Shown piece by piece: positions 7,943-42,492 of a stretch of DNA of 64,000 nucleotides (position 1 is the stretch's first letter; every line of letters begins with the position of its first letter). Origin of the DNA: a virus; the IMG/VR virus record IMGVR_UViG_3300032893_000031, positions 8,552-72,551 of that record, one strand, 5' to 3'. A model generated the notes under the pieces. That model was not told the DNA's origin and searched no databases. It saw only the letters and a list, made by a program, of their open reading frames with translations. A program made the position numbers and the translations under genes.

Positions 7943-8139
7943 TGGTTGTTGTTTGTGATCGGTGACGAGTATTCGTGATAGGGCTGGAATTGTCCAGACG
8001 AATCGTATTCGTGGGTGTCAACGCCCGGCCAGTGAACACACCCGCTAAAAAGCAGCGCGAGCAGGACAGCGCCGAAGATGATGGCCAACCCGGCGATGAT
8101 GCAGATGACTTCTTTGCGGGTGATCATGCTTGTTTCCAT
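7939..8139 (-). CDS. small lipobox/TM protein (spanin-like or lipoprotein)
   Basis: ORF 7939-8235 trimmed to ATG 8139. METSMITRKEVICIIAGLAIIFGAVLLALLFSGC has a hydrophobic helix ending in an FSGC lipobox-like motif. ATGA overlap with the OMP gene. Confidence 0.45.
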   Translation of the reverse strand: METSMITRKEVICIIAGLAIIFGAVLLALLFSGCVHWPGVDTHEYDSSGQFQPYHEYSSPITNNNQ

Positions 8140-8468
8140 TCCCCTTTGGTCAGGTAGCCGTGCCACTTGCAGCCGCTCGTCCTGAGCACGCTCGGCGTCA
8201 GCGTCGGGGCCTCTTTGTTTCCGTCCCAATGCCATATACTGCTACTGAACCCACGCCGAACCGGCAACGATCCCACGCTTCCACAGCCACACGGGCAGAC
8301 GAACTGAATGCTGGCGATCTGGCCGTCGGTGCCCTCGGCGAAGTCGAACGAACCGGGCGCGAGGTCCTTGCGAAAAACCTCCTCGCCGCCAGTCCAGTCT
8401 GAGCCGTCGGCGTTCTTGCCGCCTGCGAGGATGCCTTGGACAAGAGTCGCCTTCATCAATCCCTCCAC
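8124..8468 (-). CDS. DUF6527-like zinc-ribbon protein
   Basis: The sequence FVCPCGCG ... WHWDGNKEAPTLTPSVL ... CKWHGYLTKGEW matches the DUF6527 pattern as I remember it. ATG 8456 is an alternative start. Confidence 0.5.
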   Translation of the reverse strand: MEGLMKATLVQGILAGGKNADGSDWTGGEEVFRKDLAPGSFDFAEGTDGQIASIQFVCPCGCGSVGSLPVRRGFSSSIWHWDGNKEAPTLTPSVLRTSGCKWHGYLTKGEWKQA

Positions 8469-8614
8469 TCCAATCGGCCATTGCGTTTTCGTATCAACCG
8501 CAGCGAATATTTAATTGAGGGGCTAGTCTTTTTCTTCGGAACGCGGAGATCGGCGGTCTGCGGAGCGAGAACATCCTTAAGCGTCATATCGAGAAGTTCC
8601 TTTTGGCTGTGCAT
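8456..8614 (-). CDS. small hypothetical protein, 52 aa (below ORF-track cutoff)
   Basis: Hand translation gives MHSQKELLDMTLKDVLAPQTADLRVPKKKTSPSIKYSLRLIRKRNGRLEWRD. It starts 2 nt after the upstream stop, and its stop overlaps ATG 8456 (TGATG). Confidence 0.35.
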   Translation of the reverse strand: MHSQKELLDMTLKDVLAPQTADLRVPKKKTSPSIKYSLRLIRKRNGRLEWRD

Positions 8615-13676: not shown

Positions 13677-15140
13677 TCACGAGCAGGTTATCGTGTCCGC
13701 TGAACTACTGCATCTCACAAAAAGCCACATTCTGCCGAATTGCGGGAAAATCGGACGGACCGCATGGCGGTAGAACGCGAAATGGCGGCCAAGCTTGTGC
13801 GTCGGATCAGCCACACCCGCGCAGGAGGCAAATCCCAAGAGGGCATCGTTGCCGGTGATGAAGTCCCACTCGCCGAAATAATTCTGCGGGTGCCACTTCA
13901 TGCCGGGAGCGGCGTTGATGGGCTTGAGCACTTCCTCGGTGCAAACCCACGGATGGAGCGAGATCGCGGCCTCGTAGGTGGCGATGGTCGGGTCAACCCA
14001 GGATGGATTGATGATGGCGGCCAGCCCCTTGGTCACGTCGTTGCTGTTGTTGCTATTGGCCCACACCGGGATGCGGACGTAGGTATTGCCGCCGTAGGCG
14101 ACCTGGTAGGTGGTCCACGTCGCGCTGGAAACGTTGTTGGTCCAGGCGAGAGTGGCCAGAGCGCCGGCGATGGTGACGGCGACCGAGATCAGCACGTTGC
14201 CCGCGCTGTCCTTGGCAACGTTAACAGTATCGCCGTTCTTGGTCAGAGCCCAGCGGGGCGGGAAGGGCGTGATGATGTGCCGGAAGTTCTTGATCACCCG
14301 GCTAGCGCCCATGCGCTGAATGACGGGGTTGGTGTCGCCCCAGCCCTGGAAGGACTGGTTCAAGTCGCTGCGAAACTCGCTGTTATTGAGCAGGATGTCG
14401 CGGCTGGTTTCCAACCCGATGAGCAGCGGGAAGATCGGGCCGTCGGGTCCGAGAGTCAGCCACCCCTGGGTGTTTGGGTCGTAAGCGCCTTCCTGAATCA
14501 ATGCCGAGGCGCCGGAATCGAGCATTTCCTGGGTGAGTTGCGAGGTTGGAGTGTTGGCCGCGCCCAAGGCCGACAGGTCGGGGCCGGTCGGGTTGGTGCT
14601 GTTCGGGCCATAGACGTTCAGGTTGGGCTGACCCCAGTTCATGGCAGAATTGCAGGCCATCTTGGGGACGAAGCGCATGTACCAGTTAGCCACGCGATTG
14701 GAGACCGAGCGGATGGAGCGCATCTCCATCGCCTTGAAATACTTCATCCAGAAGTCCTTCGAGTGCCAGTACATCACGAGGTCGTCCTGGCCGACGAGGG
14801 GGCCGACGAGCGGGAACCGCTCCGGCTTGTAGGTGTTTTCCTTGTGGCCGACGTTGACGGATTGGAAGTCCGTCGAGGCGTCCAGGGCGCCGTTGGGGTT
14901 GCCGCCGGAGATCGGCGCGATGTAGTTCCAGGGCTCCTCGTCCACATCAGCCTCGGAACGTTCGATGGTGAACACCGACCGGCCGTAGCCGGCGCCCTCG
15001 GGATAGGTCTCCTTCGGGACGATGTTCAGCCACGGGTCCATCCAGGAGCCGATGGTGTAAAGGGTTTCGCCAAGGTCTTCCACCTTGGCCCGCAAATCGT
15101 CAAAAGGTGTGCTGCAAGCTTGCTTGACAATGAAGGACAT
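13677..15140 (-). CDS. major capsid protein candidate
   Basis: ORF 13677-15239 trimmed to ATG 15140 (MSFIVKQACSTPFDDL...), 487 aa. It sits downstream of the scaffold-like gene behind a long upstream untranslated region. The family was not verified. Confidence 0.55.
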   Translation of the reverse strand: MSFIVKQACSTPFDDLRAKVEDLGETLYTIGSWMDPWLNIVPKETYPEGAGYGRSVFTIERSEADVDEEPWNYIAPISGGNPNGALDASTDFQSVNVGHKENTYKPERFPLVGPLVGQDDLVMYWHSKDFWMKYFKAMEMRSIRSVSNRVANWYMRFVPKMACNSAMNWGQPNLNVYGPNSTNPTGPDLSALGAANTPTSQLTQEMLDSGASALIQEGAYDPNTQGWLTLGPDGPIFPLLIGLETSRDILLNNSEFRSDLNQSFQGWGDTNPVIQRMGASRVIKNFRHIITPFPPRWALTKNGDTVNVAKDSAGNVLISVAVTIAGALATLAWTNNVSSATWTTYQVAYGGNTYVRIPVWANSNNSNDVTKGLAAIINPSWVDPTIATYEAAISLHPWVCTEEVLKPINAAPGMKWHPQNYFGEWDFITGNDALLGFASCAGVADPTHKLGRHFAFYRHAVRPIFPQFGRMWLFVRCSSSADTITCS

Positions 15141-15405
15141 TCCAAGCGCAGCTAGGAGAAGTATCAAAATGTGCATAACTAAATCAGCGTGCTGTGTTGT
15201 TGTTCGGATTCGCCTTGGCCCACATAGGCGCAAGGGCATACCGAGTGCGTTATTGGAACTCCCTGTTTGAAGTCGGCCGGGCTGCCGCTGCCGTGCGTCC
15301 GAACTATCGGCGTTTATTGACGCTTAGACCATTGATGTCTGTTCTGGTCCCGAACAGTGAAAAACCTAAAACCCGAGCAAGAGGCAAGTCAACAGAAAAC
15401 TTAAT

Positions 15406-15825
15406 CTATTTTTTGCGGGGAGTAAGTGGCACCCAGAACAAGCCGAACGCCGCAACCGAAGCGCAGAGGAAAACCGCTGTTTCTGGTGTGGCGTTGATGT
15501 GTAGCGGCACCCAAATGACAGCGGAAAACACGATGGTCGCCACCACCATTGAGGCTTTTGCGAGCGGCCTTCTGAGGGATATGGCGATGATGAGGTTGCC
15601 GATGCCAAACAGGCACTTGATGGGGGCGAACCCCACAGCCAAGTCCCAAGTGGAGGCCATAATCACCACCGCCACAGCGTTAATTGCGAGCATCCCGGGC
15701 CAGCCCCACATTTTCATCAGGCGGTTGGATTCCAAGCGCAAGTCTGGCGAAGCAACGAGGGTGCCCCAGAGGTCCACCAAAGAGGCAGCAACGACTAAGG
15801 CGATCTGAGTGAAAAGGTGATTCAC
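15406..15825 (-). CDS. small polytopic membrane protein
   Basis: ORF 15406-15993 trimmed to GTG 15825 to clear the scaffold gene (an internal ATG near 15715 is an alternative). About four hydrophobic helices (GMLAINAVAVVIMAS, LFGIGNLIIAISL, MVVATIVFSAVIWVPL, VFLCASVAAFGLFWVPL). Confidence 0.45.
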   Translation of the reverse strand: MNHLFTQIALVVAASLVDLWGTLVASPDLRLESNRLMKMWGWPGMLAINAVAVVIMASTWDLAVGFAPIKCLFGIGNLIIAISLRRPLAKASMVVATIVFSAVIWVPLHINATPETAVFLCASVAAFGLFWVPLTPRKK

Positions 15826-15880
15826 AAACGAAAACGCCCGCTGGGGAACCGAAACCCCAGCGGGCGCTGCGGGCAGGCGG

Positions 15881-17155
15881 TCAGGAGGCCGGAGAGGTAA
15901 GCCGGTGGATAAAGCCATCCCGAACCTGGCTGGGGGGTGTCCCGGGTTTGACGGGTGGTGGTTTGCCAGACCCGCCACCTTCCCGGCCGCCACCGGCGGG
16001 CAATCCCGGGTTGGCGGCGGTCAGGCGGGCCACCTGTTCCTTGAGCGTCTGATTCTCTTTGAGCAGTCGCAACCCCTGTTCGAGCGCCACCGGGTAGGCA
16101 GCCGCCTGGAAACAGGCGGACATCAAGTCTTGCGGCTTCATCCCCTCGCCGGTGAAATACCGCTTGGCCAGCGCGATCCGCTCCGGCACAGCCTTGTTCC
16201 ACTCAGCGGCGCCTTCCTCGGTGTCGGGGCGAAGCTGGAACATCGGATCGCCCTTTTCGGCCGCCTGACGGGCCTTGATGGCGTCGGCAAAGGCGGTTTC
16301 GGCCTGCTGGCGGGCCTGCTCGCGTTTGCCCTCCGCGGTGGTTGTCTCAGCGGCTTGGCGTTCCTTGGCAGCCGCAACCTCTTTTTCGAGGGTTTCAGAG
16401 CGTTCCTGCGAGATGGCCTCCAGCGAATTCAGGACGGAGCCGAACCGGCTGGATTGGAGCGGGCTCAGGTCGGCAATCAGTTCCTCGATCTGCTGCGATT
16501 TGTAGGGCGAATCCGGCAGGGCCAGCACTTTGGCCGCCTGTTCAGCCTTGTCGGCGCCGACGATGTTCTTGGCTAGCGTCACCTGGGCATTGACCTTGTT
16601 GTCGAAGTACGCCTTGAACCTCGGGTGCTCGGCGACATTCAGCCGGCGGATGGTCTCCGTCAGTTGCTCGATCTCCTGGTTGGCGGCTTCAAGCGCAGCT
16701 TTCTCGGCCTTGCTGGTGCCCTCGGCGGCAGTCTCGGCGGCTTTGCGGGCTTCGGCAAGCTGGGTTTCGAGGGTTTTGACCCTGCCATCATATTCGGCGA
16801 GCTTCGGCTCGTATTCGGCCTTGATGCCAGCCTTGGCTTCCGCCCACTCCTTGGCGCTGCGCGGTGGCTGTTTATCGAAGTCCCGGGCGGCAGGTGTGGG
16901 GGGTGTGGCTGGCTTCGGGGGTGTGACGGGTGCCGCGGTGGGCGGTGTCGCGGGCGGCTCTGCCGGCGGGGCTGGTGGAGGCGGCTCGGCGGGGGGCGTC
17001 TTTGGCTGTGCGGGTGGCGTGGTGGGTGCCGCTGGGGTGATATTACGGTCCATCCAACTGCTGATGATGTCGCGCGTGCTACCGGCGCCAGCGGGCGGGG
17101 CGGCGGCAGGAGCTTCGGCGGGGGCCAATACTTTGGTCAGGTGATTGTGTAACAT
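15881..17155 (-). CDS. scaffolding protein candidate
   Basis: 424 aa. Pro/Thr/Ala-rich N-terminal tract, then long Ala/Glu/Lys coiled-coil segments. Located just upstream of the capsid gene. Confidence 0.55.
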   Translation of the reverse strand: MLHNHLTKVLAPAEAPAAAPPAGAGSTRDIISSWMDRNITPAAPTTPPAQPKTPPAEPPPPAPPAEPPATPPTAAPVTPPKPATPPTPAARDFDKQPPRSAKEWAEAKAGIKAEYEPKLAEYDGRVKTLETQLAEARKAAETAAEGTSKAEKAALEAANQEIEQLTETIRRLNVAEHPRFKAYFDNKVNAQVTLAKNIVGADKAEQAAKVLALPDSPYKSQQIEELIADLSPLQSSRFGSVLNSLEAISQERSETLEKEVAAAKERQAAETTTAEGKREQARQQAETAFADAIKARQAAEKGDPMFQLRPDTEEGAAEWNKAVPERIALAKRYFTGEGMKPQDLMSACFQAAAYPVALEQGLRLLKENQTLKEQVARLTAANPGLPAGGGREGGGSGKPPPVKPGTPPSQVRDGFIHRLTSPAS

Positions 17156-17159
17156 AAGA

Positions 17160-17426
17160 TTACTCAGCGGGTTCGTAGGTTGCGGCGAAAATGTCGGGCT
17201 TGCAGGGGTAGAATTCGCCCTTCACCCCCCTAATGATCCAATCGTTTGGAATGGCCAGCATTTCGCCCTCCATTGTTCTGATGGCGAGCGCACCGCCGGG
17301 GGCTTCTGTGACAATCGAGTTTCCCTCTGGCGGCATGTTTTGATGCGCCCAAGCGATAATGTCGATCTGGTTTCCGTTCAACTGAACGGCCTCAATAACG
17401 ACTGGTTTCTTTCGGAATTTTGGCAT
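17160..17426 (-). CDS. hypothetical phage protein, 88 aa
   Basis: The N-terminus MPKFRKKPVVIEAVQ is a pattern common in small phage proteins. Confidence 0.5.
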   Translation of the reverse strand: MPKFRKKPVVIEAVQLNGNQIDIIAWAHQNMPPEGNSIVTEAPGGALAIRTMEGEMLAIPNDWIIRGVKGEFYPCKPDIFAATYEPAE

Positions 17427-17429
17427 AAC

Positions 17430-17861
17430 TCAGGGTAGTTTGTGGACTAACGTGGCTGGTTGCGGCCGTGGTTTATTTTTGGGATCTGGCAGGAAATCGG
17501 TTTCCATCGGCTCGAACGTCTCGGCGGTCTCCGGCTTGTCGGCGACATACACGCCAAGAAGCTGGAAATCGGCCAGTGCGTTGGAGTAGCCCTCGCATTG
17601 GGCTTGAAGGATAGCGCGGGTTTGCAAGTCGGGAAAGCTGTCGAGCGAGAAGTTGCCTTGGTGGGTGTTGCGCAAGGCATCGAGCATCATCTTGGTTTCG
17701 GGCGCAGCCAACACCTGCTGGGCCTTCTTCACCATGTCGGGGATTCTACGCCATTCCTGCACGCGCATGGAGCAGGCATCCCGGTATTCCACCCGGATCT
17801 CAACCGGCTGTGGCGGGGACTTGCGGAACAACACTTTTAATTTTCTAAGCAACTCACGCAC
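17430..17861 (-). CDS. hypothetical protein, 143 aa
   Basis: ORF 17430-17903 trimmed to GTG 17861, which is preceded by AAGGAGG with a 6-nt spacer and lies just after the upstream TAA. Confidence 0.5.
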   Translation of the reverse strand: MRELLRKLKVLFRKSPPQPVEIRVEYRDACSMRVQEWRRIPDMVKKAQQVLAAPETKMMLDALRNTHQGNFSLDSFPDLQTRAILQAQCEGYSNALADFQLLGVYVADKPETAETFEPMETDFLPDPKNKPRPQPATLVHKLP

Positions 17862-17862
17862 T

Positions 17863-18219
17863 TTAAGCCTCCTTATCGGGTTCTGGCAATACCTTAGCCT
17901 CAACCGTCACCTTGCCTTCCTGGGTGATGACGCGGAACTCCCCAATGATTTGCTCGTCCCGCATGAGGCGGCTGAAATTGGGATGTTCCTCAAGGCGGAT
18001 TTTGTTGGTCCTGAGATAGTGCTGCAACCGGCGGCGGTCCTTTACCTTTTTGCTGTCGGCGAGGTTGAACACATGCGGGGGCAGGGCGTGGAACATCGCC
18101 TTGCGCAGCCAATGGCCTTTGGCGGACTGAATGGCTTGGGCCTTCTCTTGCAGGCGTTTCTCGAATTCGGACGGCAGACGGTTGAAGCCATCTCGGTTGA
18201 AAACAAAGCGTGCGCTCAT
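17863..18219 (-). CDS. hypothetical protein, 118 aa
   Basis: ORF 17863-18462 trimmed to ATG 18219 (ATGA overlap with the methyltransferase stop). Confidence 0.5.
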   Translation of the reverse strand: MSARFVFNRDGFNRLPSEFEKRLQEKAQAIQSAKGHWLRKAMFHALPPHVFNLADSKKVKDRRRLQHYLRTNKIRLEEHPNFSRLMRDEQIIGEFRVITQEGKVTVEAKVLPEPDKEA

Positions 18220-18815
18220 CCCTCTGTTCCCTCCATCCCGCCGATAATCGTTCGGGGCTTTGCTCGTTGCGGCGGCCATACCGGCTTCACCGGCGGCGGG
18301 ACAATCTTCTCCGCGACCAGCGCAAACGAGTAGGCGTTGCCCGGGAACGGCCAAAGCTCGAAGATGACTTTGGCCTCGCGCGGGAGTTTGGCTTTCACGA
18401 ATTCGAGCGAGAAGTCGGGATGCTTGTGCGCCCGGTTGGGTTCCCCGCCGTAAACCCGGCAATGTTCAAGGTAGGCTTTCTGGTCGGGCAGGAACATGAC
18501 GAGCTTGCCGCCGATCTTGAGCACCCTCAGCCACTCGCGGAGAATCAAGGTGGTGTCGGTGAAATCCTCGAGTACGTGTGAACTGTAGCAGAAATCCAAC
18601 GACTCATTCCTGAACCACACCAGATTGGCGGCGTCCCCGATCAGGTTGGTCGGCCATTCGTTGTCCTCGATTCGGCGGTGTGGGTGCCCGGGTGCTCGGT
18701 CGAGCGTCATCGCCCAGTCCACGATTGGCTGGCCACCGCCGAAGCCTAAATCCACGCCTGTCCCCGTACAGAACGGGGCCAGCTTTTCCCTTGCCGATTC
18801 GGTTTCTGTGCTCAT
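18216..18815 (-). CDS. class I SAM-dependent methyltransferase
   Basis: 199 aa. GVDLGFGGG (motif I-like), LDFCYSSHVLEDF and LRVLKIGGKLV match the Methyltransf_11/25 layout. Confidence 0.65.
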   Translation of the reverse strand: MSTETESAREKLAPFCTGTGVDLGFGGGQPIVDWAMTLDRAPGHPHRRIEDNEWPTNLIGDAANLVWFRNESLDFCYSSHVLEDFTDTTLILREWLRVLKIGGKLVMFLPDQKAYLEHCRVYGGEPNRAHKHPDFSLEFVKAKLPREAKVIFELWPFPGNAYSFALVAEKIVPPPVKPVWPPQRAKPRTIIGGMEGTEG

Positions 18816-19483
18816 AAGACAGTTAGTTCCATCCCGGTTTCATCTATCAGGTAATCATACCCGATCTGGTTGAAGTGATTGGTGGGGTCAAGCTGTTTGT
18901 ATTTGTCCACGCGGGCCTGACGCAGTTCGGGCGTGCTCATGCCGTAGTGAAGAAGCTGGCACTCGGTCTCCATCGTTTTGCCGTGGGGCAGGCATTGGGC
19001 GTGCAGTCTGGCCGTGGCGTTGCCCTGCCAGTGAACGAATCCGCCCAGGAGCGGGTTGCGATGGACAACCACCTTGCGCTTGCGCCCCCAGATGCCGTCC
19101 GAGCGGTATTGAAGCGGGTTGGCCGACCAAACCTCGCGCACGCGATAGCTGATAAGGTCGCAGCCCTTGTGAACGGCAACTTCAATTTGCTGATGCAGCC
19201 CATCGCGGGTGATTGATGGTTCGAGCAATTCGTCATCGTCCAAGAGCAATACCCAATCGCAGCCGTGCGCGGCGGCGCGGGCCAGGAGCGTCAGGTGGTT
19301 GGTCCAGTCGTTCCATTCCTCGTTCTTGCGAGCCAGCCGAGCAATTTCATCCGGCAACCCGCTGGACCATTCCACGTTGTCGGCCAGGACGATGACGGCA
19401 TCGCACAGGGCGACAAGCTGGTTCAGGCTGCCGAAGTCCGGCTTGCTCTCGCGGCCAATGGGCATGAGTCCAGCAATCTTCAT
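18812..19483 (-). CDS. GT-A-type glycosyltransferase candidate (GT2-like)
   Basis: Trimmed to ATG 19483 (ATGA overlap). WVLLLDDDELLEP is a DxD-type motif. Confidence 0.5.
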   Translation of the reverse strand: MKIAGLMPIGRESKPDFGSLNQLVALCDAVIVLADNVEWSSGLPDEIARLARKNEEWNDWTNHLTLLARAAAHGCDWVLLLDDDELLEPSITRDGLHQQIEVAVHKGCDLISYRVREVWSANPLQYRSDGIWGRKRKVVVHRNPLLGGFVHWQGNATARLHAQCLPHGKTMETECQLLHYGMSTPELRQARVDKYKQLDPTNHFNQIGYDYLIDETGMELTVL

Positions 19484-20133
19484 GGCTTCACCTTTTGGTA
19501 GTCGTAGGGCGTATCCCGCCATGTCCCCTCGTAATAATGGGCCGCGCAAGTCTCAGGAAACCGCTGCGTCGGTGGTTCACCGCGGAAGGGGAAGAACGGG
19601 AAGAACACCCTCGGGTTCTCGACGAGCGGGAATTTCGGCTCAAACCGCTGGTATTCGCGGCTGAGAAAGCCCGTGCTCAGCCGGTGAGTCATTGTCTCTC
19701 GATGGTGCGTCTCATACGACTCGGGCGCGTGTTCGATGACGGCCTTGATGAACGGGTGACGAGGCACCGCGGCGAGAATTGTATCGGCAATCCAGCCGGG
19801 GATGTGCTCGTCCTCACGGGCGAGCATGATGTCCCGGCCCTCAAGGTGCTGCTCGATGTTCCTGAAACACTCGAAATCGCAATGCAGATAAACCCCGCCG
19901 TAGATGTAAAGAAGTTCGTACTGCAGGAGCAAAAACTTGGCATCGGTTTCCGGCGCGGCGTCGAACAGTTTTTGGTTGATCAGCGGGTAGGGCAGATTGT
20001 CGGCGTTCCAGAAATACACCTGCCAGCCGTTGTGATGGCGAAGCCACGACACCATGTACTCGGCGAACCTCGGCGGGAATAGCCTTGGCCCAAGGCCAAG
20101 CCAGCACCAGTGAAATATCTTCGGGATTCTCAC
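19480..20133 (-). CDS. glycosyltransferase, GT32 / Gly_transf_sug-like
   Basis: Trimmed to GTG 20133 (GTGA overlap). IPKIFHWCWLG and FLLLQYELLYIYGGVYLHCDFEC match the mannosyltransferase-type DXD family. Confidence 0.6.
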   Translation of the reverse strand: MRIPKIFHWCWLGLGPRLFPPRFAEYMVSWLRHHNGWQVYFWNADNLPYPLINQKLFDAAPETDAKFLLLQYELLYIYGGVYLHCDFECFRNIEQHLEGRDIMLAREDEHIPGWIADTILAAVPRHPFIKAVIEHAPESYETHHRETMTHRLSTGFLSREYQRFEPKFPLVENPRVFFPFFPFRGEPPTQRFPETCAAHYYEGTWRDTPYDYQKVKP

Positions 20134-21038
20134 AGCAACTCCATCACCGCATTTCTCCACTCGCGGGCGTAGCGGGAGATTCCAAACCGCGCAACGGCAT
20201 CCTGCCTGGCCCAATAGGCTATGCCCGCCCCAAAGTCATGGTCGGACAGCACGCGGCGAACGCCGGCAAACCAGTCCTGCTCCGAGGTTGCGACGTAGGC
20301 GTTCCATTCGTGGATGAACAGGTCGGCCATGTTCTCCGACTGGAAGGTGACAATCGGCAGCCCCACCAGCATGGCCTCGATGGTGCTCATCGTCACCAGC
20401 CGCGAGGGGTTCAGGTAGGCCCGATGCGAGCGGTAGATGCTCAGCAGGTCAGTGAATGATTGCGGCTTAATGCGGTGGTAAGGCTGGGCGGGCACATTGT
20501 TGCCATCCCCGCAGAGGGTAATCTGATTCGACAGGTCGGACGGCATGTCCAGAATCAGCTTTGCCCCCTTCTCCAACCGCGCGGGCAGGTTGTAGCCGAC
20601 CATCAAAGCGCGATCCCCGCAGTAGCGATTCCAACCGCTCCACAGGTCCACATCAAAGCCGTGCTCGATGACGCGGGCCAGCGTGTCGGGCATCTGCCAG
20701 CGGCGGCGGGCCTCAACTGAGTGAAACACATAGCGGTCCACCAGCGGGCGCCAATCTCTGCCGGGGATGACGGCGGGCCGCATCACGCACTCCATGAAGA
20801 TCAGGGGTAGGCGGTAGATTTTGAAGGCTTCCAAGGATTGCTCGTTGGTTGCAATGGCCACATCCCAATCGCGTTCCTCGACATCCTCGGGCGTCAAGAC
20901 CGAGAGATTGGCCGGCTTGGGGCGGGTCGTTTCATCCCACCAACCGCCGAGGTTGTCCCCGACAATCGCCATGCGGTCGAACACCTGGCAGAGATTGAAT
21001 ATCTCCCCGCCGTGATGGGCTGCGATGAGGGCTTTCAT
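20130..21038 (-). CDS. GT-B-type glycosyltransferase candidate (GT4-like)
   Basis: Trimmed to ATG 21038 (ATGA overlap). C-terminal STIEAMLVGLPIVT resembles the Glycos_transf_1 core. Confidence 0.5.
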   Translation of the reverse strand: MKALIAAHHGGEIFNLCQVFDRMAIVGDNLGGWWDETTRPKPANLSVLTPEDVEERDWDVAIATNEQSLEAFKIYRLPLIFMECVMRPAVIPGRDWRPLVDRYVFHSVEARRRWQMPDTLARVIEHGFDVDLWSGWNRYCGDRALMVGYNLPARLEKGAKLILDMPSDLSNQITLCGDGNNVPAQPYHRIKPQSFTDLLSIYRSHRAYLNPSRLVTMSTIEAMLVGLPIVTFQSENMADLFIHEWNAYVATSEQDWFAGVRRVLSDHDFGAGIAYWARQDAVARFGISRYAREWRNAVMELL

Positions 21039-21733
21039 GGGCGGACATGGGCCAGCCAAGCGCCCCAACCATTCAGGGCGGCGGTCTGCCGGCCGTGAAA
21101 GCCGAATTGACCCGTATAGACAACGTTCTCAGCCGAGAAGCGTCTGGCAATACTCTCGGGCGCGAACCGCATCCCCTCACGTTCGAGCCAAGGTCGGATG
21201 CTCCGGCATATCCATCGGTCGCTGCTGGCCAATCCGGGGTCGTTCTTATGTTCATACGCGGCATCGGATACCAACTCGCAGAACTTGCGGCTTCTGAGGG
21301 AGAAACCGCCGTTCCCGACATTGTTAGCCTCCGTGCATGGCGGCCATCCCGAATCGTGATGATCGCACCAGGGGGCACCGATGTAGGAGTATTTCAGCCA
21401 GCCGTCATCCCATGCGTCGGGATTCAGCACCGCCGAGTCCCACTCTTGTAGGAGAAGATGGCTCGTCCTCACATGCTTGTGCAGTTCGGTGAGGATGCTC
21501 CACTCGTAGCCAAGCGTAGTCGCGTGCGAGCCTGGGATGTTCTGGAAATGCTTATCGTCGTGCGAGTGCCGAACAATCTGCAACCCCGGCGGCGGCTTGG
21601 GCACCGGCTGGTCGGTGAGCAGCTTGGCCTCGGCAAACTTCACCCACTTCATGCTTTGGGCCATCACGTCAGCCGTGCGTTGCGGCTTGAACGTGTCAAT
21701 CGAGATCAGGGTGACTTGGGGGAGATGAAGCAT
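21035..21733 (-). CDS. DUF5672-family protein (putative glycosyltransferase)
   Basis: 232 aa. GNGGFSLRSRK is the hallmark motif I associate with DUF5672. Confidence 0.55.
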   Translation of the reverse strand: MLHLPQVTLISIDTFKPQRTADVMAQSMKWVKFAEAKLLTDQPVPKPPPGLQIVRHSHDDKHFQNIPGSHATTLGYEWSILTELHKHVRTSHLLLQEWDSAVLNPDAWDDGWLKYSYIGAPWCDHHDSGWPPCTEANNVGNGGFSLRSRKFCELVSDAAYEHKNDPGLASSDRWICRSIRPWLEREGMRFAPESIARRFSAENVVYTGQFGFHGRQTAALNGWGAWLAHVRP

Positions 21734-21735
21734 GG

Positions 21736-22506
21736 TTATGGCTGCGGTTCAAGGCACAGCCTCCGCATTTTGCCGCCGAGGCTTTCGCGGCTTTGTTTCC
21801 AAATCGTTTCCATCTTCTGCTTGGCCTTCCCCCAACAGTGGACGGTAGCCATCTTCACGGGCTGCTCGTAGCGAAACCAGTAGGGGATGCCGTCGGCAAA
21901 CACGATGTCCCGGTGGCCCTCGAATTGGGAGGCTCCGGGGAGCATCAGGTAAAGCGAGTGGCAGATGTTCCATTCGTGAAACCAGCCCTCAAGCATCGGC
22001 TGGCCCAACCGCTCAAGCTGCGGGTTAATCACGTTGCCATCCGAAACCATGCGCGGGTCTTGCGATGCCTGAACCTCGCGGCGGGCCTTGAAAACCTCCA
22101 TGTAATAGTCGGCAATCACGCGGGCACCCTCGCGGGTGATGAACCGCGCCCCGGTCGGTCGGGCAGTCGCCAGCGTCAGTTTCGAGCGCACCTGCTCGAG
22201 TACCGGCGACAGATTGGCGAACAGCAGAACGTCGCTGTCCATGACGAACACCAACTCTTTGCCGTTCTTCTCCATCCAGTCAGCCAGCAGGAACCATTGC
22301 TCGAAACACCATCGCTCGAACGGCAACCCGTTGTTGCTGGTGTGCCGGTAATGCTTGCGGAACTCGTCAACGGCGGCGCAGGGAAACTCGTCAACGACAG
22401 CCACGCCATGCCCGGTCGCAGCCGCCGATTCAATGGCCCATTTCATGCCGGGGAATGATTTACCGAACGTGCGCGTGCTTTGCATGATGACGACTTCGAC
22501 GCTCAT
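21736..22506 (-). CDS. glycosyltransferase-like protein (DSD motif)
   Basis: Trimmed to ATG 22506 (ATGA overlap). LVFVMDSDVLLF is a DxD-like motif. The family was not identified. Confidence 0.4.
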   Translation of the reverse strand: MSVEVVIMQSTRTFGKSFPGMKWAIESAAATGHGVAVVDEFPCAAVDEFRKHYRHTSNNGLPFERWCFEQWFLLADWMEKNGKELVFVMDSDVLLFANLSPVLEQVRSKLTLATARPTGARFITREGARVIADYYMEVFKARREVQASQDPRMVSDGNVINPQLERLGQPMLEGWFHEWNICHSLYLMLPGASQFEGHRDIVFADGIPYWFRYEQPVKMATVHCWGKAKQKMETIWKQSRESLGGKMRRLCLEPQP

Positions 22507-23174
22507 ACAGGAAGTGGGATGCCGAGGCAGCGGCACTCCTGCACAATGAAGTCCAGGGCGGCTTTATCCTTGATGCCGTGAATGGCGCGGGCGCCGTGTT
22601 GCAGGGCGTCCAGCAACAAGCCGGCGGTGGGTGAGAATAATGGCTGAATTGTGCCCTCGCCATATCCTGGGGGCGAGAAGGGCAACACCGGCACACCCGC
22701 AACCTGACAGATAGCGGCCATGAAGCGGTCTCCCGCCCCTTCCTCCATTATCGTGGGATAGCGGTCGGTGATTTCCAGCAGGCGCAACACGCTGGCGCGG
22801 TCCACCGTCCAGGGCACCAGCGGGTAGCGGGGCGCCATGAATCGTGAGGGTTCGGTGTTCGGCATGAGCACCCCCGTCAGCCCGTTGGGAAACTCAATGC
22901 GCTTTTGCAGCAGCAGCGAGTCATACTCGAAGATCGCCGCGTGCGAATGCCCGCTTTTGGCAAACCAATGCAGGACCGCCTTAATCTTGTTGATGGCATC
23001 AGCCCCGGAGTGGCAGCTTGGCCCGTAGGTGAATTGCTGGTGCCGGGTCTCAACTGGGGCATCCGAGGATTGGGCAACCACGACAGGCAGGCCGTGCCAT
23101 TCCCAAAACGGCAGGTGCCGGTCAAAGGTTTCCTGCGCGGCCTTGTGCGGGAGGATGATGACGATGGGGTTCAT
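22503..23174 (-). CDS. hypothetical protein of the glycosylation island (GT-A-like?)
   Basis: Trimmed to ATG 23174 (ATGA overlap). NPIVIILPHK and AAIFEYDSLLL are weakly GT-like. Confidence 0.35.
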   Translation of the reverse strand: MNPIVIILPHKAAQETFDRHLPFWEWHGLPVVVAQSSDAPVETRHQQFTYGPSCHSGADAINKIKAVLHWFAKSGHSHAAIFEYDSLLLQKRIEFPNGLTGVLMPNTEPSRFMAPRYPLVPWTVDRASVLRLLEITDRYPTIMEEGAGDRFMAAICQVAGVPVLPFSPPGYGEGTIQPLFSPTAGLLLDALQHGARAIHGIKDKAALDFIVQECRCLGIPLPV

Positions 23175-24709
23175 GGTAGCCACTCCTCAAATTGCTCAAT
23201 CGGGTCGTCCTGATTCATAAAGGTCTCGCGCTCGAACATGCAGTCCCGGCCGCCGTGCCAGCTTTCCTGATACACCCGCTGGCCCATTGCCAGGGCGAGC
23301 GAGCAGGGAAAGCTCTGGTTCGCGGCTACGGCCTTCCCGCCGGCAATCACCCGCGCCATTTCAAGAAAGTCGTAAACCCGATAGTAGGACACCCTCCCGA
23401 ATTGCCGAACAAACTCCCGGTATTCATCTTCCAACCCGACGAAAAGCATTTCCCGCCCGTATCGCTTCACCAGCTCGCGCCACGGGAAGTCCTTGGCCTG
23501 ATAGCGAAAGCTGCGGTGAACGATGATCTTGCCCGTCCAAATCGGCTCGCCAGCCTCCAGCCACGGTTCATCCTGTTTCATCAGGTGGCGCACGCCCGCG
23601 GCGTAACAGTGCATCTCGCAGAGGTTGTGAATGCGCTCGTTCTGGCGCAGCGTCCAGTTGTTCCAATGGTCGCGGAACTTATTCAGGTCATACTGGACGG
23701 CCTTGCCGGGATACTTCGGAGTAAATGACACCGAGCGCAGATACCGCTGAGCCTCCAACAGCGGGAGCGCCATGTCGAATTGCTCGCGGGTGATGGGCAC
23801 CATGCAAGGCATCGTCCCGTTTTGCTGCGGGCCGAGGACGAGTTCACCCCCGCCGTGCAGCTTGATGGCGTACAGCCCGTAGATGATGTCCCCGAGGTTG
23901 CCGGAATGGTAGTAGGATGACCCCCGCCGGAGCAGGGCTCGCACGGGCTTAATCATCATCGCCCGAACCGCTTGCAGGAAGTTGGGGTCGAACGCATACG
24001 AAACGGTGTTGCGCTTCTCGCGCAGGCGGGTGATCAGGGTGTCATCTTTACAGGCATGGAAGATCACAGCCCGCTTATCAATCCGGCGAACATCGGCCTG
24101 ACTTGGAAAAGTCCATGTTTCATTCGTCACCCGGTTGCCGCGCTCATGGTGCATTAGGTGGGTTGGATGCGTGTGCCGCAACGTCATGTGCGGGCGCGTG
24201 CAATCCCACGGAAGCTGCTCGGCGACTAGAATGTAGTGGTTGTACTTGGCGATGTCTGGTGGGTAGATCGCGCAACCGGTCAGGTGGTTCTCCTTTTTGG
24301 TCGCGCTCATCCACGGATAGATGACGCCCATGAATGGCTTCTTCGCCCAATAATACTCGGTCTCCAAAGCCGTCAGCCAGCCGGGAGAAAGTGGCACGCA
24401 ATCGGGCTCGCACCAGTAAAACGCTTCGTCATAATTCTCTTTGACGTAAATCGCCGCCACCCGAAACAGCTTGTTGCACGCCCTCGGCCAGCCGCCTTCC
24501 TCGACGCGGGTCTGCTTGATGGCCGTCACCCGCCCGAACGTCTGCTTGGCAATGCGCGTGGCCTCGTCAATTTCCTCCTGCGGGACTTGCGAGGAAGCGA
24601 CGAGCAGCGCCTTGTGCTGCGGCATCTTTGGGTCAAGCTCGACGATCCACCGTAGAAGCTCTTGGGCTTGGTGGAAATCTTTGTGACAAAAGGCGATGAC
24701 TACGAGCAA
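23171..24709 (-). CDS. two-domain glycosyltransferase-like protein (C-terminal GT9/heptosyltransferase-like)
   Basis: 512 aa. The C-terminal half starts YYHSGNLGDIIYGLYAIKLHGG, reminiscent of GT9 N-termini. The N-terminal half is unassigned. Confidence 0.4.
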   Translation of the reverse strand: MLVVIAFCHKDFHQAQELLRWIVELDPKMPQHKALLVASSQVPQEEIDEATRIAKQTFGRVTAIKQTRVEEGGWPRACNKLFRVAAIYVKENYDEAFYWCEPDCVPLSPGWLTALETEYYWAKKPFMGVIYPWMSATKKENHLTGCAIYPPDIAKYNHYILVAEQLPWDCTRPHMTLRHTHPTHLMHHERGNRVTNETWTFPSQADVRRIDKRAVIFHACKDDTLITRLREKRNTVSYAFDPNFLQAVRAMMIKPVRALLRRGSSYYHSGNLGDIIYGLYAIKLHGGGELVLGPQQNGTMPCMVPITREQFDMALPLLEAQRYLRSVSFTPKYPGKAVQYDLNKFRDHWNNWTLRQNERIHNLCEMHCYAAGVRHLMKQDEPWLEAGEPIWTGKIIVHRSFRYQAKDFPWRELVKRYGREMLFVGLEDEYREFVRQFGRVSYYRVYDFLEMARVIAGGKAVAANQSFPCSLALAMGQRVYQESWHGGRDCMFERETFMNQDDPIEQFEEWLP

Positions 24710-25211: not shown

Positions 25212-25478
25212 TTACGGCCAGGTTTGGCCGAAGGGACGACGGCGGCTGGCCTGAGTGCGGGACTTCGCGCTGCGGGCGGGCTGGCGGGGTGCCTTGCCGT
25301 GAGAGTGGGACATGGGGGCTGGTCCGTGCTTGGCCCCGGCGTGCTGGCTGACGGGGCGGCGCGGCCACGGAAGATTCCAGGCCCCAAACGTTTTCCTGGC
25401 AAGTGTGTCCGCCTGTCGGTCAATGCTTGCTTGGTTTTGCGCGGTGACGGCTCGATCTTTCTCGTTTTGGTCATTCAT
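25212..25478 (-). CDS. hypothetical basic protein, 88 aa
   Basis: ORF track; ATGA overlap with the HNH-AP2 gene stop; Arg/Pro/Ala-rich. Confidence 0.35.
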   Translation of the reverse strand: MNDQNEKDRAVTAQNQASIDRQADTLARKTFGAWNLPWPRRPVSQHAGAKHGPAPMSHSHGKAPRQPARSAKSRTQASRRRPFGQTWP

Positions 25479-25969
25479 ATCAATCCCATTTGCTGATTCG
25501 TTCTGGCAAATTCACCAAAGTAGGCTAATGCCGCTGCGTCATAAGCGCGAGCGGCATCTTTAGGAGATACGAATCTTCCAAGGTAGAACATTCGGTCCCC
25601 TCTGGAAATCTGAGCCTCCCATTTGCCAGACCGGAATCGCACCCCCTTATATCCAGACGCGTTATTTTTGTGCAGGGCCATGTTCCCGTTGTTTTGAACA
25701 TAATCGCAACGCCGGAGGTTGCTCCGCTGATTGTTCAATCCGTTGCCATCCTTATGATCACACCGCTCTCCTCGTTGGAGGCCGAGAATTACACGGTGCA
25801 TGTCTATGTTCCCTACCCTCCTGGGGTTTTCTGGCCCACGTTGTTTGCGGCGGCAGGCGTAGAACGTGTTCCAAGATGGCCTGGCGCACCAGCTCCATTG
25901 GATTAGCCATTCATAATCTTCGTCATCAACTAAGGCGACCAAGCCTCTCGTTAGTGGAATCTCTTTCAT
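25475..25969 (-). CDS. HNH homing endonuclease with AP2 DNA-binding domain
   Basis: 164 aa. The segment DHKDGNGLNNQRSNLR matches HNH_3. The segment SGYKGVRFRSGKWEAQI..YLGRF..AARAYDAAALAYFGEFA matches AP2. Confidence 0.8.
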   Translation of the reverse strand: MKEIPLTRGLVALVDDEDYEWLIQWSWCARPSWNTFYACRRKQRGPENPRRVGNIDMHRVILGLQRGERCDHKDGNGLNNQRSNLRRCDYVQNNGNMALHKNNASGYKGVRFRSGKWEAQISRGDRMFYLGRFVSPKDAARAYDAAALAYFGEFARTNQQMGLI

Positions 25970-26120: not shown

Positions 26121-27461
26121 TCATTCTCCATTGCCAGCAAGGACTTCCTCTGGCTCCGGCACTTCGGTATCGGTGAAATTGATGCCCGTTTCCTCAGCCT
26201 CGTTGATTTCCGCCACTAAATCGCGCACGGCATCCAGCGAGATTTCCACCGGCTGGCCCTTGAGCATGTCCGCGACTTCCATCAGGTGGTCGGCGGCCTC
26301 CTGCACGGTGTTGCCGACGCCGTTGATGGAGCCGATGCAGGCGGTGTGGAAGTGGTTGCGCGGGAAATGCAGGACATCGCCCGCCAGCATGGCCTCGCGA
26401 GGGTTCAGCCACGGCCAGAGCTTGTCCTCCACGCGGATGGAGCGCCAATCGCGGAAGCCATCGGCATGGTCCATCAGGCATTCGATGACAACTTTGCAGG
26501 CGGGTTCGATTTCAATGCTTTCGCCCGCACCGGCGGCGTAAAGGAGTTGCGGAAGATTGCCGTAAGCCTGTAGCTGGCAGGAGCCGGATGGGAACCCCAA
26601 CCGGGTGGTGATGTCGGTAAGGACGTTTTCGGTTTTGGTCTTGCGCTGCTCGGTGCTGAGGAAATTGCTGTAGCGGTATTTGGCGAGCGTCGGCAAGAGC
26701 GGTTCGAGGACCGAAGTGATTTGCGGGTCAAGGTCGGCATACGGACGGATGAACGAGCAGTAGGCTTGGTTCTTTTTTTCGACTCCGATGAGCGCATGGG
26801 ATGGCGCTTGGCCGTTGACGATGAGGAAGTCCCCGCCATCTTCGATGTCGGTCTTGATCTCGTCCTCGACCATGAAATCAATGAGTTCCTTGAACGGCCC
26901 GAATTTCACCGCCAGCTTGTCGAGCAGCCCGTTGTCTTGCTCCCATGACCGCCATTTTCGAGTCTCAAAATCCGCTCTCCAGCGGTCAATCTTCAAGAAC
27001 TTATTCTCCAACGGAGCAAGGTGCTGCGTCAGCCGGGAGATGCCTTTGATCGTGATGTATTCCGGCACGTCCATCCCGAGCTTGGATTGCAGTTTGCGGA
27101 AGCGGCTGCGATAGAGTTCAAGTTCCTGGCCTTCCTTGGAGCCAACAACCCGGTGCCCGAGGGATTCGAGGTAAACCTGTGCGCCGATGTGGCCGGTGTC
27201 GGGGAAGACGAAGAGCGAGATTTCCTCGAACTTGTCTCCCCGGGCCATCCTCAACCAAAAGTCGTTGCAGCGGTGGATTCCAAGATCAGCAAAACCGTCA
27301 CCCCATTGTTCCTCAACGCTCTGATGGTCCTCATCGAAGGGCGTGTGGTAGAGCACGCGGCCAAAGCCGTCGGGATTGATGGCCTGGGACAAGTGGAGGG
27401 CGAGATTGAAGAACAATCCACTGTCCACGATCAAAACCTTCTTGTCGCTCAGTTCGCTCAT
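26121..27461 (-). CDS. ATP-grasp-fold enzyme candidate
   Basis: Trimmed to ATG 27461 (ATGA overlap), 446 aa. The N-terminal KKVLIVDSG Rossmann-like start and overall layout resemble phage ATP-grasp / PurD-like proteins. Not verified. Confidence 0.4.
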   Translation of the reverse strand: MSELSDKKVLIVDSGLFFNLALHLSQAINPDGFGRVLYHTPFDEDHQSVEEQWGDGFADLGIHRCNDFWLRMARGDKFEEISLFVFPDTGHIGAQVYLESLGHRVVGSKEGQELELYRSRFRKLQSKLGMDVPEYITIKGISRLTQHLAPLENKFLKIDRWRADFETRKWRSWEQDNGLLDKLAVKFGPFKELIDFMVEDEIKTDIEDGGDFLIVNGQAPSHALIGVEKKNQAYCSFIRPYADLDPQITSVLEPLLPTLAKYRYSNFLSTEQRKTKTENVLTDITTRLGFPSGSCQLQAYGNLPQLLYAAGAGESIEIEPACKVVIECLMDHADGFRDWRSIRVEDKLWPWLNPREAMLAGDVLHFPRNHFHTACIGSINGVGNTVQEAADHLMEVADMLKGQPVEISLDAVRDLVAEINEAEETGINFTDTEVPEPEEVLAGNGE

Positions 27462-27789
27462 GCTGGTCCGTCGGTAAATCTTGGGCTGTTCCAAAGAGCA
27501 GCCGCATCCGTCGCGTTAGCAGCCTCGACCATCCGGCAACCGTATTGCCCGCACGCGATTGTCACGTCGCCGGTCACGCTGCTTCTCACGGGGTTGGCCT
27601 TCGCCCCACAACAAGGGCAGGTGCGCAAACGAATCTCCGTCGGCCACCAATGGCCTTGCGCCTCGGCAGGGCGAGGGTCGGAGTATTCATGGACAAAATA
27701 GCGGTCGTAATCATCGGCGTAATGGCGCTGGGCGAATTCTTCTTTCAGGTCGTTAGCCGGGTTTGGATTCTGTTGGGTGATCGGGTTCA
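27458..27789 (-). CDS. protein with C-terminal Lar-family zinc ribbon (restriction-alleviation-like)
   Basis: CPCCGAK...VTIACGQYGC...ATDAAALWNSP matches the Lar pattern CPFCG..v.C..C....A..WN. The start is uncertain: GTG 27789 overlaps the upstream gene by 37 nt. Confidence 0.5.
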
Positions 27790-31068: not shown

Positions 31069-31270
31069 GATTCAGAATCTCGTCTGTTCCGTCCCACGCA
31101 AGAAAGTCCTGCCGAAAGTTCCACACGCACACGTCCAGCAACACCCGTTGCATGACAGCGCGTTTTTGCTCTACCCGATTGAGAAGCACCAGTTCGTGGT
31201 GGACCCGATGGATGATTACAGATGCAAGCGTTGCCACCGGCCAAGGTGCCTTCACCTGACGCCTGATTAA
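31067..31270 (+). CDS. possible small ORF, 67 aa
   Basis: ATG 31067 sits at the end of the U-tract. Hand-counted third-position GC is about 68%, which is coding-like. Convergent with the giant gene and overlapping its stop by 4 nt. No homology recognised. Confidence 0.3.
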   Translation: MIQNLVCSVPRKKVLPKVPHAHVQQHPLHDSAFLLYPIEKHQFVVDPMDDYRCKRCHRPRCLHLTPD

Positions 31271-39762: not shown

Positions 39763-39769
39763 AAAGTTC

Positions 39770-40792: not shown

Positions 40793-40795
40793 AAA

Positions 40796-41665: not shown

Positions 41666-41679
41666 AATCTAAGGATACA

Positions 41680-42489: not shown

Positions 42490-42492
42490 CGG

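Follow-up and report, generated by a model that had tools for sequence, protein, structure and literature searches.

We describe a gene island in a 64,000-nt stretch of phage DNA of about 60% G+C (positions 8,552 to 72,551 of IMG/VR record IMGVR_UViG_3300032893_000031; hereafter the window), in which eight consecutive minus-strand open reading frames (ORFs) occupy positions 18216-24709 exactly and encode a methyltransferase (MT) together with a series of proteins that are, or may be, glycosyltransferases (GTs). We propose that the island is a late-expressed cytoplasmic cassette that would glycosylate virion proteins with a methylated glycan, and, arguing by analogy, we give this proposal an even chance of being correct. 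Because mycobacteriophage Corndog carries a cassette of similar make-up in the same slot, and because of the context shared by the clade of the window phage, glycosylation of the virion, a phenomenon already known, is the reading best supported by analogy and context. As such, the island would represent a non-homologous and more elaborate variant of the known phage virion-glycosylation cassettes.

A coupled gene array that runs into the probable head genes

Start codons were picked by inspecting the upstream sequence for ribosome-binding sites and overlaps, which gives the following genes, listed from the 5' end of the island:

23171..24709, minus strand: 512-aa gene, the first of the island; start TTG at 24709, preceded by AAAGGGGAG
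22503..23174, minus strand: 223-aa gene; start ATG at 23174
21736..22506, minus strand: 256-aa gene with a 'DSD' motif; start ATG at 22506
21035..21733, minus strand: DUF5672 gene, 232 aa; start ATG at 21733
20130..21038, minus strand: GT4-like gene, 302 aa; start ATG at 21038
19480..20133, minus strand: GT32-like gene, 217 aa; start GTG at 20133
18812..19483, minus strand: GT2-like gene, 223 aa; start ATG at 19483
18216..18815, minus strand: MT gene, 199 aa, the last of the island; start ATG at 18815

This agrees exactly with a preliminary description of the sequence, which had placed eight coupled minus-strand genes at these positions: of the seven junctions inside the island, six are overlaps of 4 nt (ATGA or GTGA) and the seventh is a gap of 2 nt. 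The gene array extends past 18216 with four further genes (117, 157, 88 and 424 aa), behind which stands a hairpin of the intrinsic-terminator type:

17863..18216, minus strand: 117-aa basic protein, the ninth coupled gene; the final base of the MT stop is the A of its ATG
17430..17903, minus strand: small conserved protein of at most 157 aa; 3' border of the variable slot described below
17160..17426, minus strand: 88-aa protein of phrog_419 (function unknown; PHROG 3.3e-31)
15881..17155, minus strand: scaffold-like protein, 424 aa, so called by composition and synteny
15833..15868, minus strand: intrinsic-terminator-like hairpin with a 14-bp stem (11 G-C) and a T-rich tail, 3' of the scaffold-like gene

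From 24981 to 15881 every junction either overlaps or leaves a gap of at most 5 nt, and no comparable minus-strand terminator site was found from 24709 to 15868. The island is part of a longer unit that ends at a strong terminator-like hairpin. The G+C content at third codon positions (GC3) is 0.72-0.80 for all eight island genes, matching that of the structural genes, and each of the eight has either a Pfam match or conserved homologues elsewhere; the 117-aa protein gave no family match.

No transmembrane (TM) segment was detected in any of the eight proteins, whose Kyte-Doolittle 19-residue means reach at most 1.74, and the two most hydrophobic segments coincide with the DXD strand and with the core motif of GT-B. 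Nor does any of the eight match a Pfam family of flippases, polymerases, initiating transferases or Gtr proteins, and the window ORFs that were scanned yielded no gene for sugar-nucleotide synthesis, so that the preliminary description proved accurate in stating that TM segments, GtrA/GtrB, Wzx/Wzy and sugar-nucleotide synthesis genes are absent. NCBIfam added nothing for the island, its MT matches all lying far below the cutoffs, and PHROGs returned only generic methyltransferase matches for the island proteins.

Two proteins with predicted glycosyltransferase folds

The 512-aa protein has no Pfam match of its own. We found 51 homologues, and its halves, N (1-233) and C (~265-511), also occur independently in other proteins, where the separate domains are fused to GH130, GT4, GT2, GT9 or DUF5672 partners. 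An AlphaFold (AF2) model built on a 32-sequence alignment reached a predicted local distance difference test score (pLDDT) of 92.2, and Foldseek searches against the PDB gave E values of 1e-5 to 1e-6 overall. The N domain (~1-235) matched GT-A structures, namely the GT8 protein 3tzt, GlyE, LH3, glycogenin, the Skp1 galactosyltransferase and MGS, and the C domain (~262-512) matched the GT9 structure 3tov (E 2.7e-6, TMt 0.45), WaaC (2h1h) and TibC (4rap). At the level of the modelled fold, the protein is a GT-A domain joined to a GT9-like small GT-B domain, and the GT9-like half that had been claimed for this two-domain protein was right at that level. A conserved HSGNLGD motif lies at the first strand-helix turn of the C domain and, as we read it, resembles the N-terminal GD motif of GT9 enzymes. 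Membership of the C half in the Pfam GT9 family (PF01075) was considered and rejected: the matches found in the homologues P0012, P0034 and P0042 fall in extra domains, away from the stretch that they share with the window protein.

Cellular homologues of the C domain (25-36% identity) were seen at L010 5909-8843 (a Smithellaceae metagenome-assembled genome) and in L015, L016 and L017 (L numbers denote contigs or loci). They adjoin a GH130-like gene or have GT2-like genes within a few kb, and the GH130 neighbourhood echoes the fusions of GH130 with the C domain in the metagenomic proteins P0023 and P0024.

The family of the 256-aa protein has 1086 representatives at 50% clustering (profile search, E<=1e-3), and none of the 70 sampled members matched Pfam; a profile of 70 family sequences found no PDB sequence match. 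The AF2 model of the 256-aa protein (pLDDT 96.1, predicted template-modelling score (pTM) 0.92) is similar by Foldseek to the GT domain of LH3, to XXT1 (GT34, a xyloglucan xylosyltransferase), to A64R of the virus PBCV-1 (2p6w), to GT8 enzymes and to glycogenin, with E values of 2e-6 to 1e-4 (A64R, one of the top neighbours: E 1.7e-5, TMt 0.51), and many annotated viral GTs also match the protein. In its DSD motif, which corresponds to the DXD motif of GTs, the two aspartates (D90 and D92) show little or no variation among 70 relatives. The model (pLDDT 96, pTM 0.92) assigns the protein a GT-A fold and makes it glycosyltransferase-like, as had been suggested from the motif.

The remaining island proteins

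The identities proposed earlier for the MT, the GT32/Gly_transf_sug protein, the GT4 protein and the DUF5672 protein were borne out by Pfam matches above the gathering score. The MT is a class I enzyme dependent on S-adenosylmethionine (SAM; Methyltransf_11, 1.9e-9, 38.5 bits against a cutoff of 21.2) and is 55% identical to its orthologue in L006 and 48% to that in L007. The GT32-type protein matches Gly_transf_sug (PF04488, 8e-7, 30.1 bits against 23) over residues 47-123 of the long ORF, with the motif YGGVYLHCD, in which His stands for the first Asp of the canonical DXD, and is weakly similar, by tblastn, to a gene of Mycobacterium phage Phrappuccino that is annotated as a glycosyltransferase. 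The GT4-type protein (GT4/GT1-type GT-B; PF13692/PF13524/PF00534) matches Glyco_trans_1_4 (5.4e-8, 33.6 bits against 27) and Glyco_trans_1_2 (8.6e-8, 32.7 against 25) over its C-terminal nucleotide-sugar-binding domain, with no Pfam match to its N-terminal acceptor domain; no homologue was found in related loci or cultured phages, which makes it an accessory of the window only. By its sequence match (PF18922, 2.6e-17, 63.4 bits against a cutoff of 24.4) the DUF5672 protein is a confirmed member of that functionally uncharacterised family, which one unrelated paper was found to mention. Homologues occur in the islands of L002, L006, L007, L019 and L028, always among glycan genes, as they do in islands of Synechococcus myoviruses. 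The protein had no PDB sequence match, and hhalign against the 512-aa and DSD families was not significant.

The GT2-like protein with its DDDE motif was not confirmed as a GT: its Pfam match to Glyco_tranf_2_4 (E=0.11) is below the cutoff, and hhalign against GT-A family A5 gave a probability of 15%, with DDD aligned on DSD. It does have a relative (phmmer 3e-31) in a 229-aa protein from the island of an unrelated phage contig, L019. The 223-aa protein at 22503..23174 has P0056 as its sole homologue besides itself, has no match in Pfam, PHROG, NCBIfam or the PDB, and is absent from L006 and the other relatives; judged by its EYD and HGIKD sequence motifs, it is possibly a GT-A-like paralogue of the N domain of the 512-aa protein. 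Comparison by hhalign of the DSD, 223-aa, DUF5672 and GT2-like proteins with the 512-aa and DSD families was not significant (probabilities 0.7-15%), and a sequence search of PDB chains with the four unannotated island proteins and the DUF5672 protein gave nothing meaningful. By these tests four proteins, with five domains, are GT-like. The seven-GT pathway of the preliminary description is plausible as a total and holds for these four; the GT2-like, the 223-aa (22503..23174) and the DUF5672 proteins were not confirmed as GTs.

A slot occupied throughout the clade

The genes that define the position of the island, besides those already listed, are:

28309..30540, minus strand: portal candidate, 743 aa, by synteny (downstream of the large terminase, TerL, in relatives)
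26121..27494, minus strand: conserved 457-aa protein, ATP-grasp-like by annotation transfer only
25475..25969, minus strand: HNH-AP2 homing endonuclease (PHROG 99, 4e-34; Pfam AP2, 7.5e-9), on the 5' side of the island
13677..15239, minus strand: major-capsid-protein (MCP) candidate, 520 aa, by conservation; follows the scaffold-like gene

The island most likely lies between portal and scaffold/capsid genes, their identities being deduced from synteny, size, conservation and composition. The placement given in the preliminary description stands on these four grounds, without a direct homology match.

Megablast and tblastn searches of 50,697 cultured phage genomes returned no relative of the region, of the portal and MCP candidates, or of the 512-aa, DSD and GT4 proteins, and TerL had distant Streptomyces-phage matches only. 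Eleven contigs, the window and ten relatives, share the portal candidate at 48-68% identity, and every one of them carries in the same slot an insertion of MT and putative GT genes of about 3-10 kb and of variable content. The slot is bordered by the portal and ATP-grasp-like genes on one side and by the small conserved gene and the scaffold-like and MCP-like genes on the other. Homologues of the 157-aa border protein were found in L002, L003, L004, L006, L018 and L021-L024, and one stands before the scaffold-like gene in all relatives examined downstream of the island; in the window the 88-aa gene separates the two.

Two types of island can be told apart. Those of type A (L003, L022, L023 and L024; L002 with additions) hold a 304/327-aa protein, a Methyltransf_24/TylF-like MT and a 362/377-aa protein, and those of type B (window, L004, L006, L018 and L027; L021 in part) begin with a homologue of the 512-aa protein. 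The slot of L006 consists of four genes in the order of the window (512-like, DSD-like, DUF5672 and Methyltransf_11), so that the window island corresponds to this core with the 223-aa, GT4, GT32, GT2-like and 117-aa genes added, and the slot of L018 holds about 17 genes, including four methyltransferases (one of the TylF type), a PLOD-type GT and a phosphatase. Identity between L004 and L018 is 44-62% for the island proteins and 51-54% for portal and TerL. Because the divergence of the island is about that of portal and TerL, we regard it as an old resident of the structural module and not as a recent moron. Recent horizontal acquisition of the whole island was rejected as an explanation, GC3 and divergence both matching the structural genes.

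The four-gene core (512-aa, DSD, DUF5672 and MT) is also present in the unrelated phages L007, L019 and L028, where it adjoins tail, baseplate or fibre genes and where the islands add more GTs, a radical-SAM enzyme and a protein of the sugar C-methyltransferase type. The DUF5672 and DSD proteins of the window are at least as similar to those of L007 and L028 as to those of L006. Islands larger than that of the window occur in the related L018, the unrelated L028 and cultured cyanomyoviruses. The 514-aa protein of L004 has index entries in 33 contig blocks.

In four independent phage contexts the island has a homing endonuclease gene (HNH-AP2, HNH_3 or GIY-YIG) on or close to its 5' border; outside the window these genes are at L004 9522-10004, L019 9460-10011 and L028 7981-8457. 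The one beside the window island had been noted before, and PHROG and Pfam both identify it as HNH-AP2. This recurrence is a hint of endonuclease-driven recombination as the means by which the cassette is moved or reshuffled.

Comparison with virion-glycosylating viruses

The preliminary description had credited mycobacteriophages with virion glycosylation by one or two GTs, which is an understatement, as cluster O mycobacteriophages carry an O-methyltransferase and three tandem GTs (PMC11600133). For the cassette of Corndog, modification of proteins of the capsid and the tail tube has been reported (PMC11600133, PMC12363180), and Corndog gp38 and Che8 gp110 have been named as essential capsid-glycosylating enzymes (PMC12363180). 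We checked the gene order of Corndog and found portal gp34 (Phage_portal 1.7e-43), the TylF-type O-MT gp35, gp36, gp37 (weak GT2), gp38 (GT25), the prohead protease gp39 and the MCP gp41. Both phages thus have an MT and several tandem soluble GTs on one strand, tightly packed, between portal and protease, scaffold or MCP genes, and an MT of the TylF/Methyltransf_24 type as in Corndog is also found in the window relatives L018, L003 and L004. However, tblastn of the window proteins against Corndog 14-40 kb gave no significant match to gp35-38, and the Corndog cassette has four genes instead of eight, with an MT of the TylF/Methyltransf_24 type where the window has Methyltransf_11. Furthermore, Corndog is a prolate-head siphovirus with an actinobacterial host, whereas the window phage belongs to an unrelated uncultured lineage whose product is predicted from its genes. 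Together, the insertions in all eleven slots, the contiguity of the array up to the terminator and the corresponding slot of Corndog strengthen the case for a tie between the island and virion morphogenesis.

Two further systems are instructive. In Che8 (cluster F1), GT-A type enzymes attach glycans to subunits of the capsid and the tail tube and protect the virion against antibodies (PMC12363180, PMC11256854). The window shares with Che8 phage-encoded enzymes of the GT-A type, but Che8 has only two GTs (gp110 and its neighbour), which lie near the right genome end and outside the head operon. The chlorovirus PBCV-1 likewise encodes soluble cytoplasmic GT-A enzymes, among a set of GTs (A64R included) and methyltransferases of its own, and these enzymes make a methylated oligosaccharide on its major capsid protein without the host ER and Golgi. 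It differs in being a eukaryotic giant virus with dispersed genes, and its likeness to the 256-aa protein is that of the generic GT-A fold (11-14% identity).

Virion glycosylation and its alternatives

From the gene structure and coupling, the GT and MT folds, the solubility of the proteins and the conserved slot, we infer an acceptor, donors, an order of steps and a product on the virion as follows. The island would share a transcript with the head-morphogenesis genes of a lytic tailed phage and be coupled to them in translation, and its soluble transferases would add sugars stepwise, from host-made nucleotide sugars, to an acceptor made by the phage. These transferases would comprise the two GT-A domains, the GT9-like domain, the GT32-type and GT4-type enzymes and probably also the DUF5672 protein and two further DXD-type proteins, and the SAM-dependent MT would O-methylate the glycan. 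The four-gene core (512-aa, 256-aa, DUF5672 and MT) might lay down a basal structure that the accessory genes (223-aa, GT4, GT32 and GT2-like) extend or vary. The acceptor would most likely be a surface-exposed virion protein, that is, a capsid, decoration or tail protein. Supportive of this proposal is the fact that the core module sits among structural genes in unrelated phages too. In addition, several structural neighbours of the modelled domains act on proteins (A64R on the capsid protein, GlyE, LH3, glycogenin and TibC), which is suggestive of a protein acceptor, the folds themselves being generic GT-A and GT9.

Several points weigh against it. Glycosylation of any phage protein is deduced from context, the acceptor is a candidate, and the portal, scaffold and MCP identities are themselves drawn from synteny. 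Three of the eight island proteins are without demonstrated GT identity, and the island has no sequence homology to the virion-acting mycobacteriophage enzymes of Corndog. Moreover, soluble GTs could equally act on lipid-linked or lipopolysaccharide (LPS)-core intermediates at the inner membrane face. Cyanomyovirus homologues of the DUF5672 protein are found in nucleotide-sugar islands away from head genes, so that the module occurs beyond head operons as well; in bacterial chromosomes, cellular C-domain homologues have GH130 or GT2 genes nearby, and about 8-10 kb of the source contig lie beyond the window. Of the earlier claim of a methylated glycan on a phage-made acceptor, the soluble multi-GT and MT island in the head array is what stands, strengthened by its conserved slot, while the acceptor and the glycosylation of protein are reached by inference.

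The transferases and the MT might instead remodel the host envelope from its cytoplasmic face, with LPS core, O-unit, capsule or other lipid-linked glycans as their substrates, with superinfection block, less adsorption of progeny to debris or altered lysis timing as the effect and with the head-operon position reflecting late timing only. The assembly of LPS and exopolysaccharide (EPS) typically uses GT9-like, GT4, GT32 and GT-A enzymes, and the cytoplasmic-face transferases of LPS, EPS and O-units are soluble or peripheral. The preliminary description therefore overstated its case in taking the absence of TM, Gtr and Wzx proteins as a strong argument against action on host glycans; because LPS and O-unit transferases of the cytoplasmic face are soluble as well, such action is not excluded by the lack of TM segments, and we rejected the argument that this lack is sufficient by itself. 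The cellular C-domain homologues near GT2 or GH130 genes also fit envelope remodelling, as does the lack of phage sugar-nucleotide genes among the scanned ORFs, which implies dependence on host envelope precursors. The cyanomyoviruses (for example Synechococcus phages S-H68 and S-B43) point in the same direction, as they too have large glycan islands, in which many GTs accompany DUF5672 homologues (30% identity) that stand beside dTDP-sugar enzymes, GT11 and GT25. Unlike the window, however, these phages carry nucleotide-sugar genes (dTDP-glucose dehydratase, epimerases, an aminotransferase), and the 19-kb stretch examined is not embedded between portal and capsid genes and has no annotated methyltransferase or 512/DSD-type protein. 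On the other hand, the eight window proteins include no initiating, flippase, polymerase, acyl or lipid-linked components and no TM protein. The Gtr modules (GtrA/GtrB/GtrC) by which temperate phages bring about O-antigen seroconversion are likewise phage-encoded glycosylation genes, but consist of membrane proteins that use undecaprenyl-phosphate sugar in lysogens, whereas the window island has no TM segment or Gtr match and its phage, with no integrase among the scanned ORFs of the window, looks lytic. Genes in the last-expressed operon would also leave little time for surface turnover, and the clade-wide conservation of the slot, together with the placement by tail genes elsewhere, is hard to explain by timing alone. 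On balance we consider envelope remodelling unlikely.

A second alternative is that the target lies outside the finished virion, be it the Pro/Thr/Ala linker of the scaffold-like protein, a host protein or a soluble small molecule, with an effect on assembly kinetics or host takeover. The scaffold-like protein encoded directly downstream does have a mucin-like linker with 26% Pro in its first 120 residues, which is also Pro-rich in L006 and would be a conceivable substrate for O-glycosylation, and some structural neighbours (Skp1 galactosyltransferase, glycogenin, TibC) act on intracellular proteins. Yet in L003 and L004 the linker lacks this richness in Pro and Thr, scaffolds are normally discarded, which makes an elaborate conserved pathway hard to rationalise, and nothing points to any specific target, so that we hold this explanation to be distinctly improbable.

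Hypermodification of DNA, in which the transferases would glycosylate 5hmC or 5hmU in phage DNA around packaging, is the least probable of the readings and, in our view, a very remote one. Pyle et al. described GT-A and GT-B enzymes of phages through which 5hmC receives hexose, HexNAc or heptose, with some clusters near structural or terminase genes (bioRxiv 10.1101/2023.12.21.572611), and these clusters resemble the island in combining several such enzymes in series to build mono- to trisaccharides from host sugar pools; the GT9-like domain could use ADP-heptose, and the window does contain a C5-cytosine DNA methylase (62311-63186, 3e-26). However, the defining 5mYOX or ThyS neighbour of those clusters is absent, with no 5mYOX/TET or thymidylate-synthase-type hydroxymethylase among the scanned ORFs (small ORFs fall outside the scan, and 8-10 kb of the contig beyond the window), such pathways are normally clustered, and the C5-methyltransferase is 37 kb distant from the island and has a replication-type protein beside it. 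The MTs of the islands (Methyltransf_11; TylF, FkbM and CmcI in relatives) are moreover of small-molecule or sugar O-methyltransferase types and not DNA MTs, relatives add radical SAM, sugar C-MT and phosphatase genes and no base-modifying genes, and the slot in the window is a conserved head-operon position.

Returning to virion glycosylation, we further propose, tentatively and with somewhat less than even confidence, that the clade reserves the slot between portal and scaffold for a modular, partly exchangeable pathway, perhaps mobilised by endonucleases, that builds complex methylated, possibly heptose-containing oligosaccharides on virion proteins, that its hosts are probably non-actinobacterial bacteria of the environment, and that virion glycosylation is widespread among environmental phages and has evolved independently of the mycobacteriophage systems. 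Such a pathway would use enzyme families without a current family model, namely the 256-aa GT-A family (more than 1000 representatives) and the N and C domains of the 512-aa protein. If this is true, phage glycan coats would extend well beyond a few mycobacteriophages, and such coats affect adsorption, stability, aggregation, and grazing or immune recognition, possibly also receptor mimicry. The clade would then represent a natural series of pathway variants, with three to about seventeen genes in one slot, that could help to dissect how phages assemble protein-linked glycans in the bacterial cytoplasm. In addition, it would give a role to DUF5672 and to a modelless family of more than 1000 representatives, and could supply new soluble protein-glycosylating enzymes for glycoengineering. 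If the target were host LPS or DNA instead, the strict linkage to head genes would need explaining.

Flanking genes and the rest of the window

In L004 and L006 a single gene of about 210 aa separates TerL from the homologue of the portal candidate downstream of it, with similar spacing in the other relatives that have TerL nearby. A small ORF and the ATP-grasp-like gene come after the portal candidate, and the same pair follows the annotated portal of the Thermocrinis Great Boiling Spring virus. Homologues of the 457-aa protein (434-457 aa) were found in L002, L004, L021-L024 and L027. Its only annotated relative (L029 6998-8188) lies two ORFs after the annotated portal of this Aquificae virus (BK013347) and is a gene annotated as phosphoribosylaminoimidazole carboxylase (PurK-like; tblastn 2e-12, 26% identity); the protein itself had no Pfam, NCBIfam or PDB match. 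We take phosphoribosylaminoimidazole carboxylase to be an ATP-grasp-type enzyme. The ATP-grasp gene of the preliminary description thus finds support in this 26%-identical gene, at the level of annotation only, and for the Lar-like gene that it also mentioned no support was found. The relationship, together with the shared place behind the portal, suggests an ancient portal-linked ATP-grasp-like head gene that is shared with hot-spring Aquificae viruses.

The scaffold-like protein has a Pro/Ala/Thr-rich N-terminal linker (residues ~10-95) followed by a Glu/Ala/Lys-rich helical body, as is typical of scaffolds; its WM-GL end motifs are conserved, and homologues follow the slot in all relatives. 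It had no Pfam or PHROG match, and a pattern search of IMG/VR found none. The MCP candidate, whose true start is probably M22 or M34, is 47-52% identical to its homologues in L004, L006 and L021-L024 and is, with portal and TerL, among the best-conserved proteins of the clade. None of the 743-aa, 424-aa and 520-aa candidates matched Pfam, PHROG, PDB or cultured-phage sequences, and a profile from a 6-sequence portal alignment had no match in the PDB. A gap of about 640 nt (15240-15880) without a convincing gene lies between the scaffold-like gene, on the terminator side, and the capsid-candidate gene.

The other features of the window that bear on its gene order and gene content are:

47488-49293, strand opposite to that of the portal candidate: large terminase TerL (phrog_2)
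40796-41665: tail proteins, within the tail proteins of 39055-45207
31267-37896: 2209-aa ORF; a 242-aa ORF separates it from the portal candidate, which lies downstream
62311-63186: C5-cytosine DNA methyltransferase (PF00145, 3e-26), 3' of a replication-initiator-like 285-aa ORF

In the window TerL and portal are 17 kb apart and on opposite strands, and in nine relatives they are close together and on one strand; this layout is a module rearrangement inside the clade. Tail genes and the 2209-aa gene upstream of the portal are an arrangement common only to the window and L024, which has a homologue of the 2209-aa protein at the same position. The product of this gene, for which no Pfam or PHROG match was found, could be a protein of the internal or ejection type, or a giant one associated with the virion. 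No dioxygenase was detected near the C5-cytosine methyltransferase, and no tRNA was found in the window. Genes unrelated to glycans include those for a phage metallopeptidase (PF18894), DUF6527 and DUF7447 (427-1080, 8124-8468 and 56679-57437).

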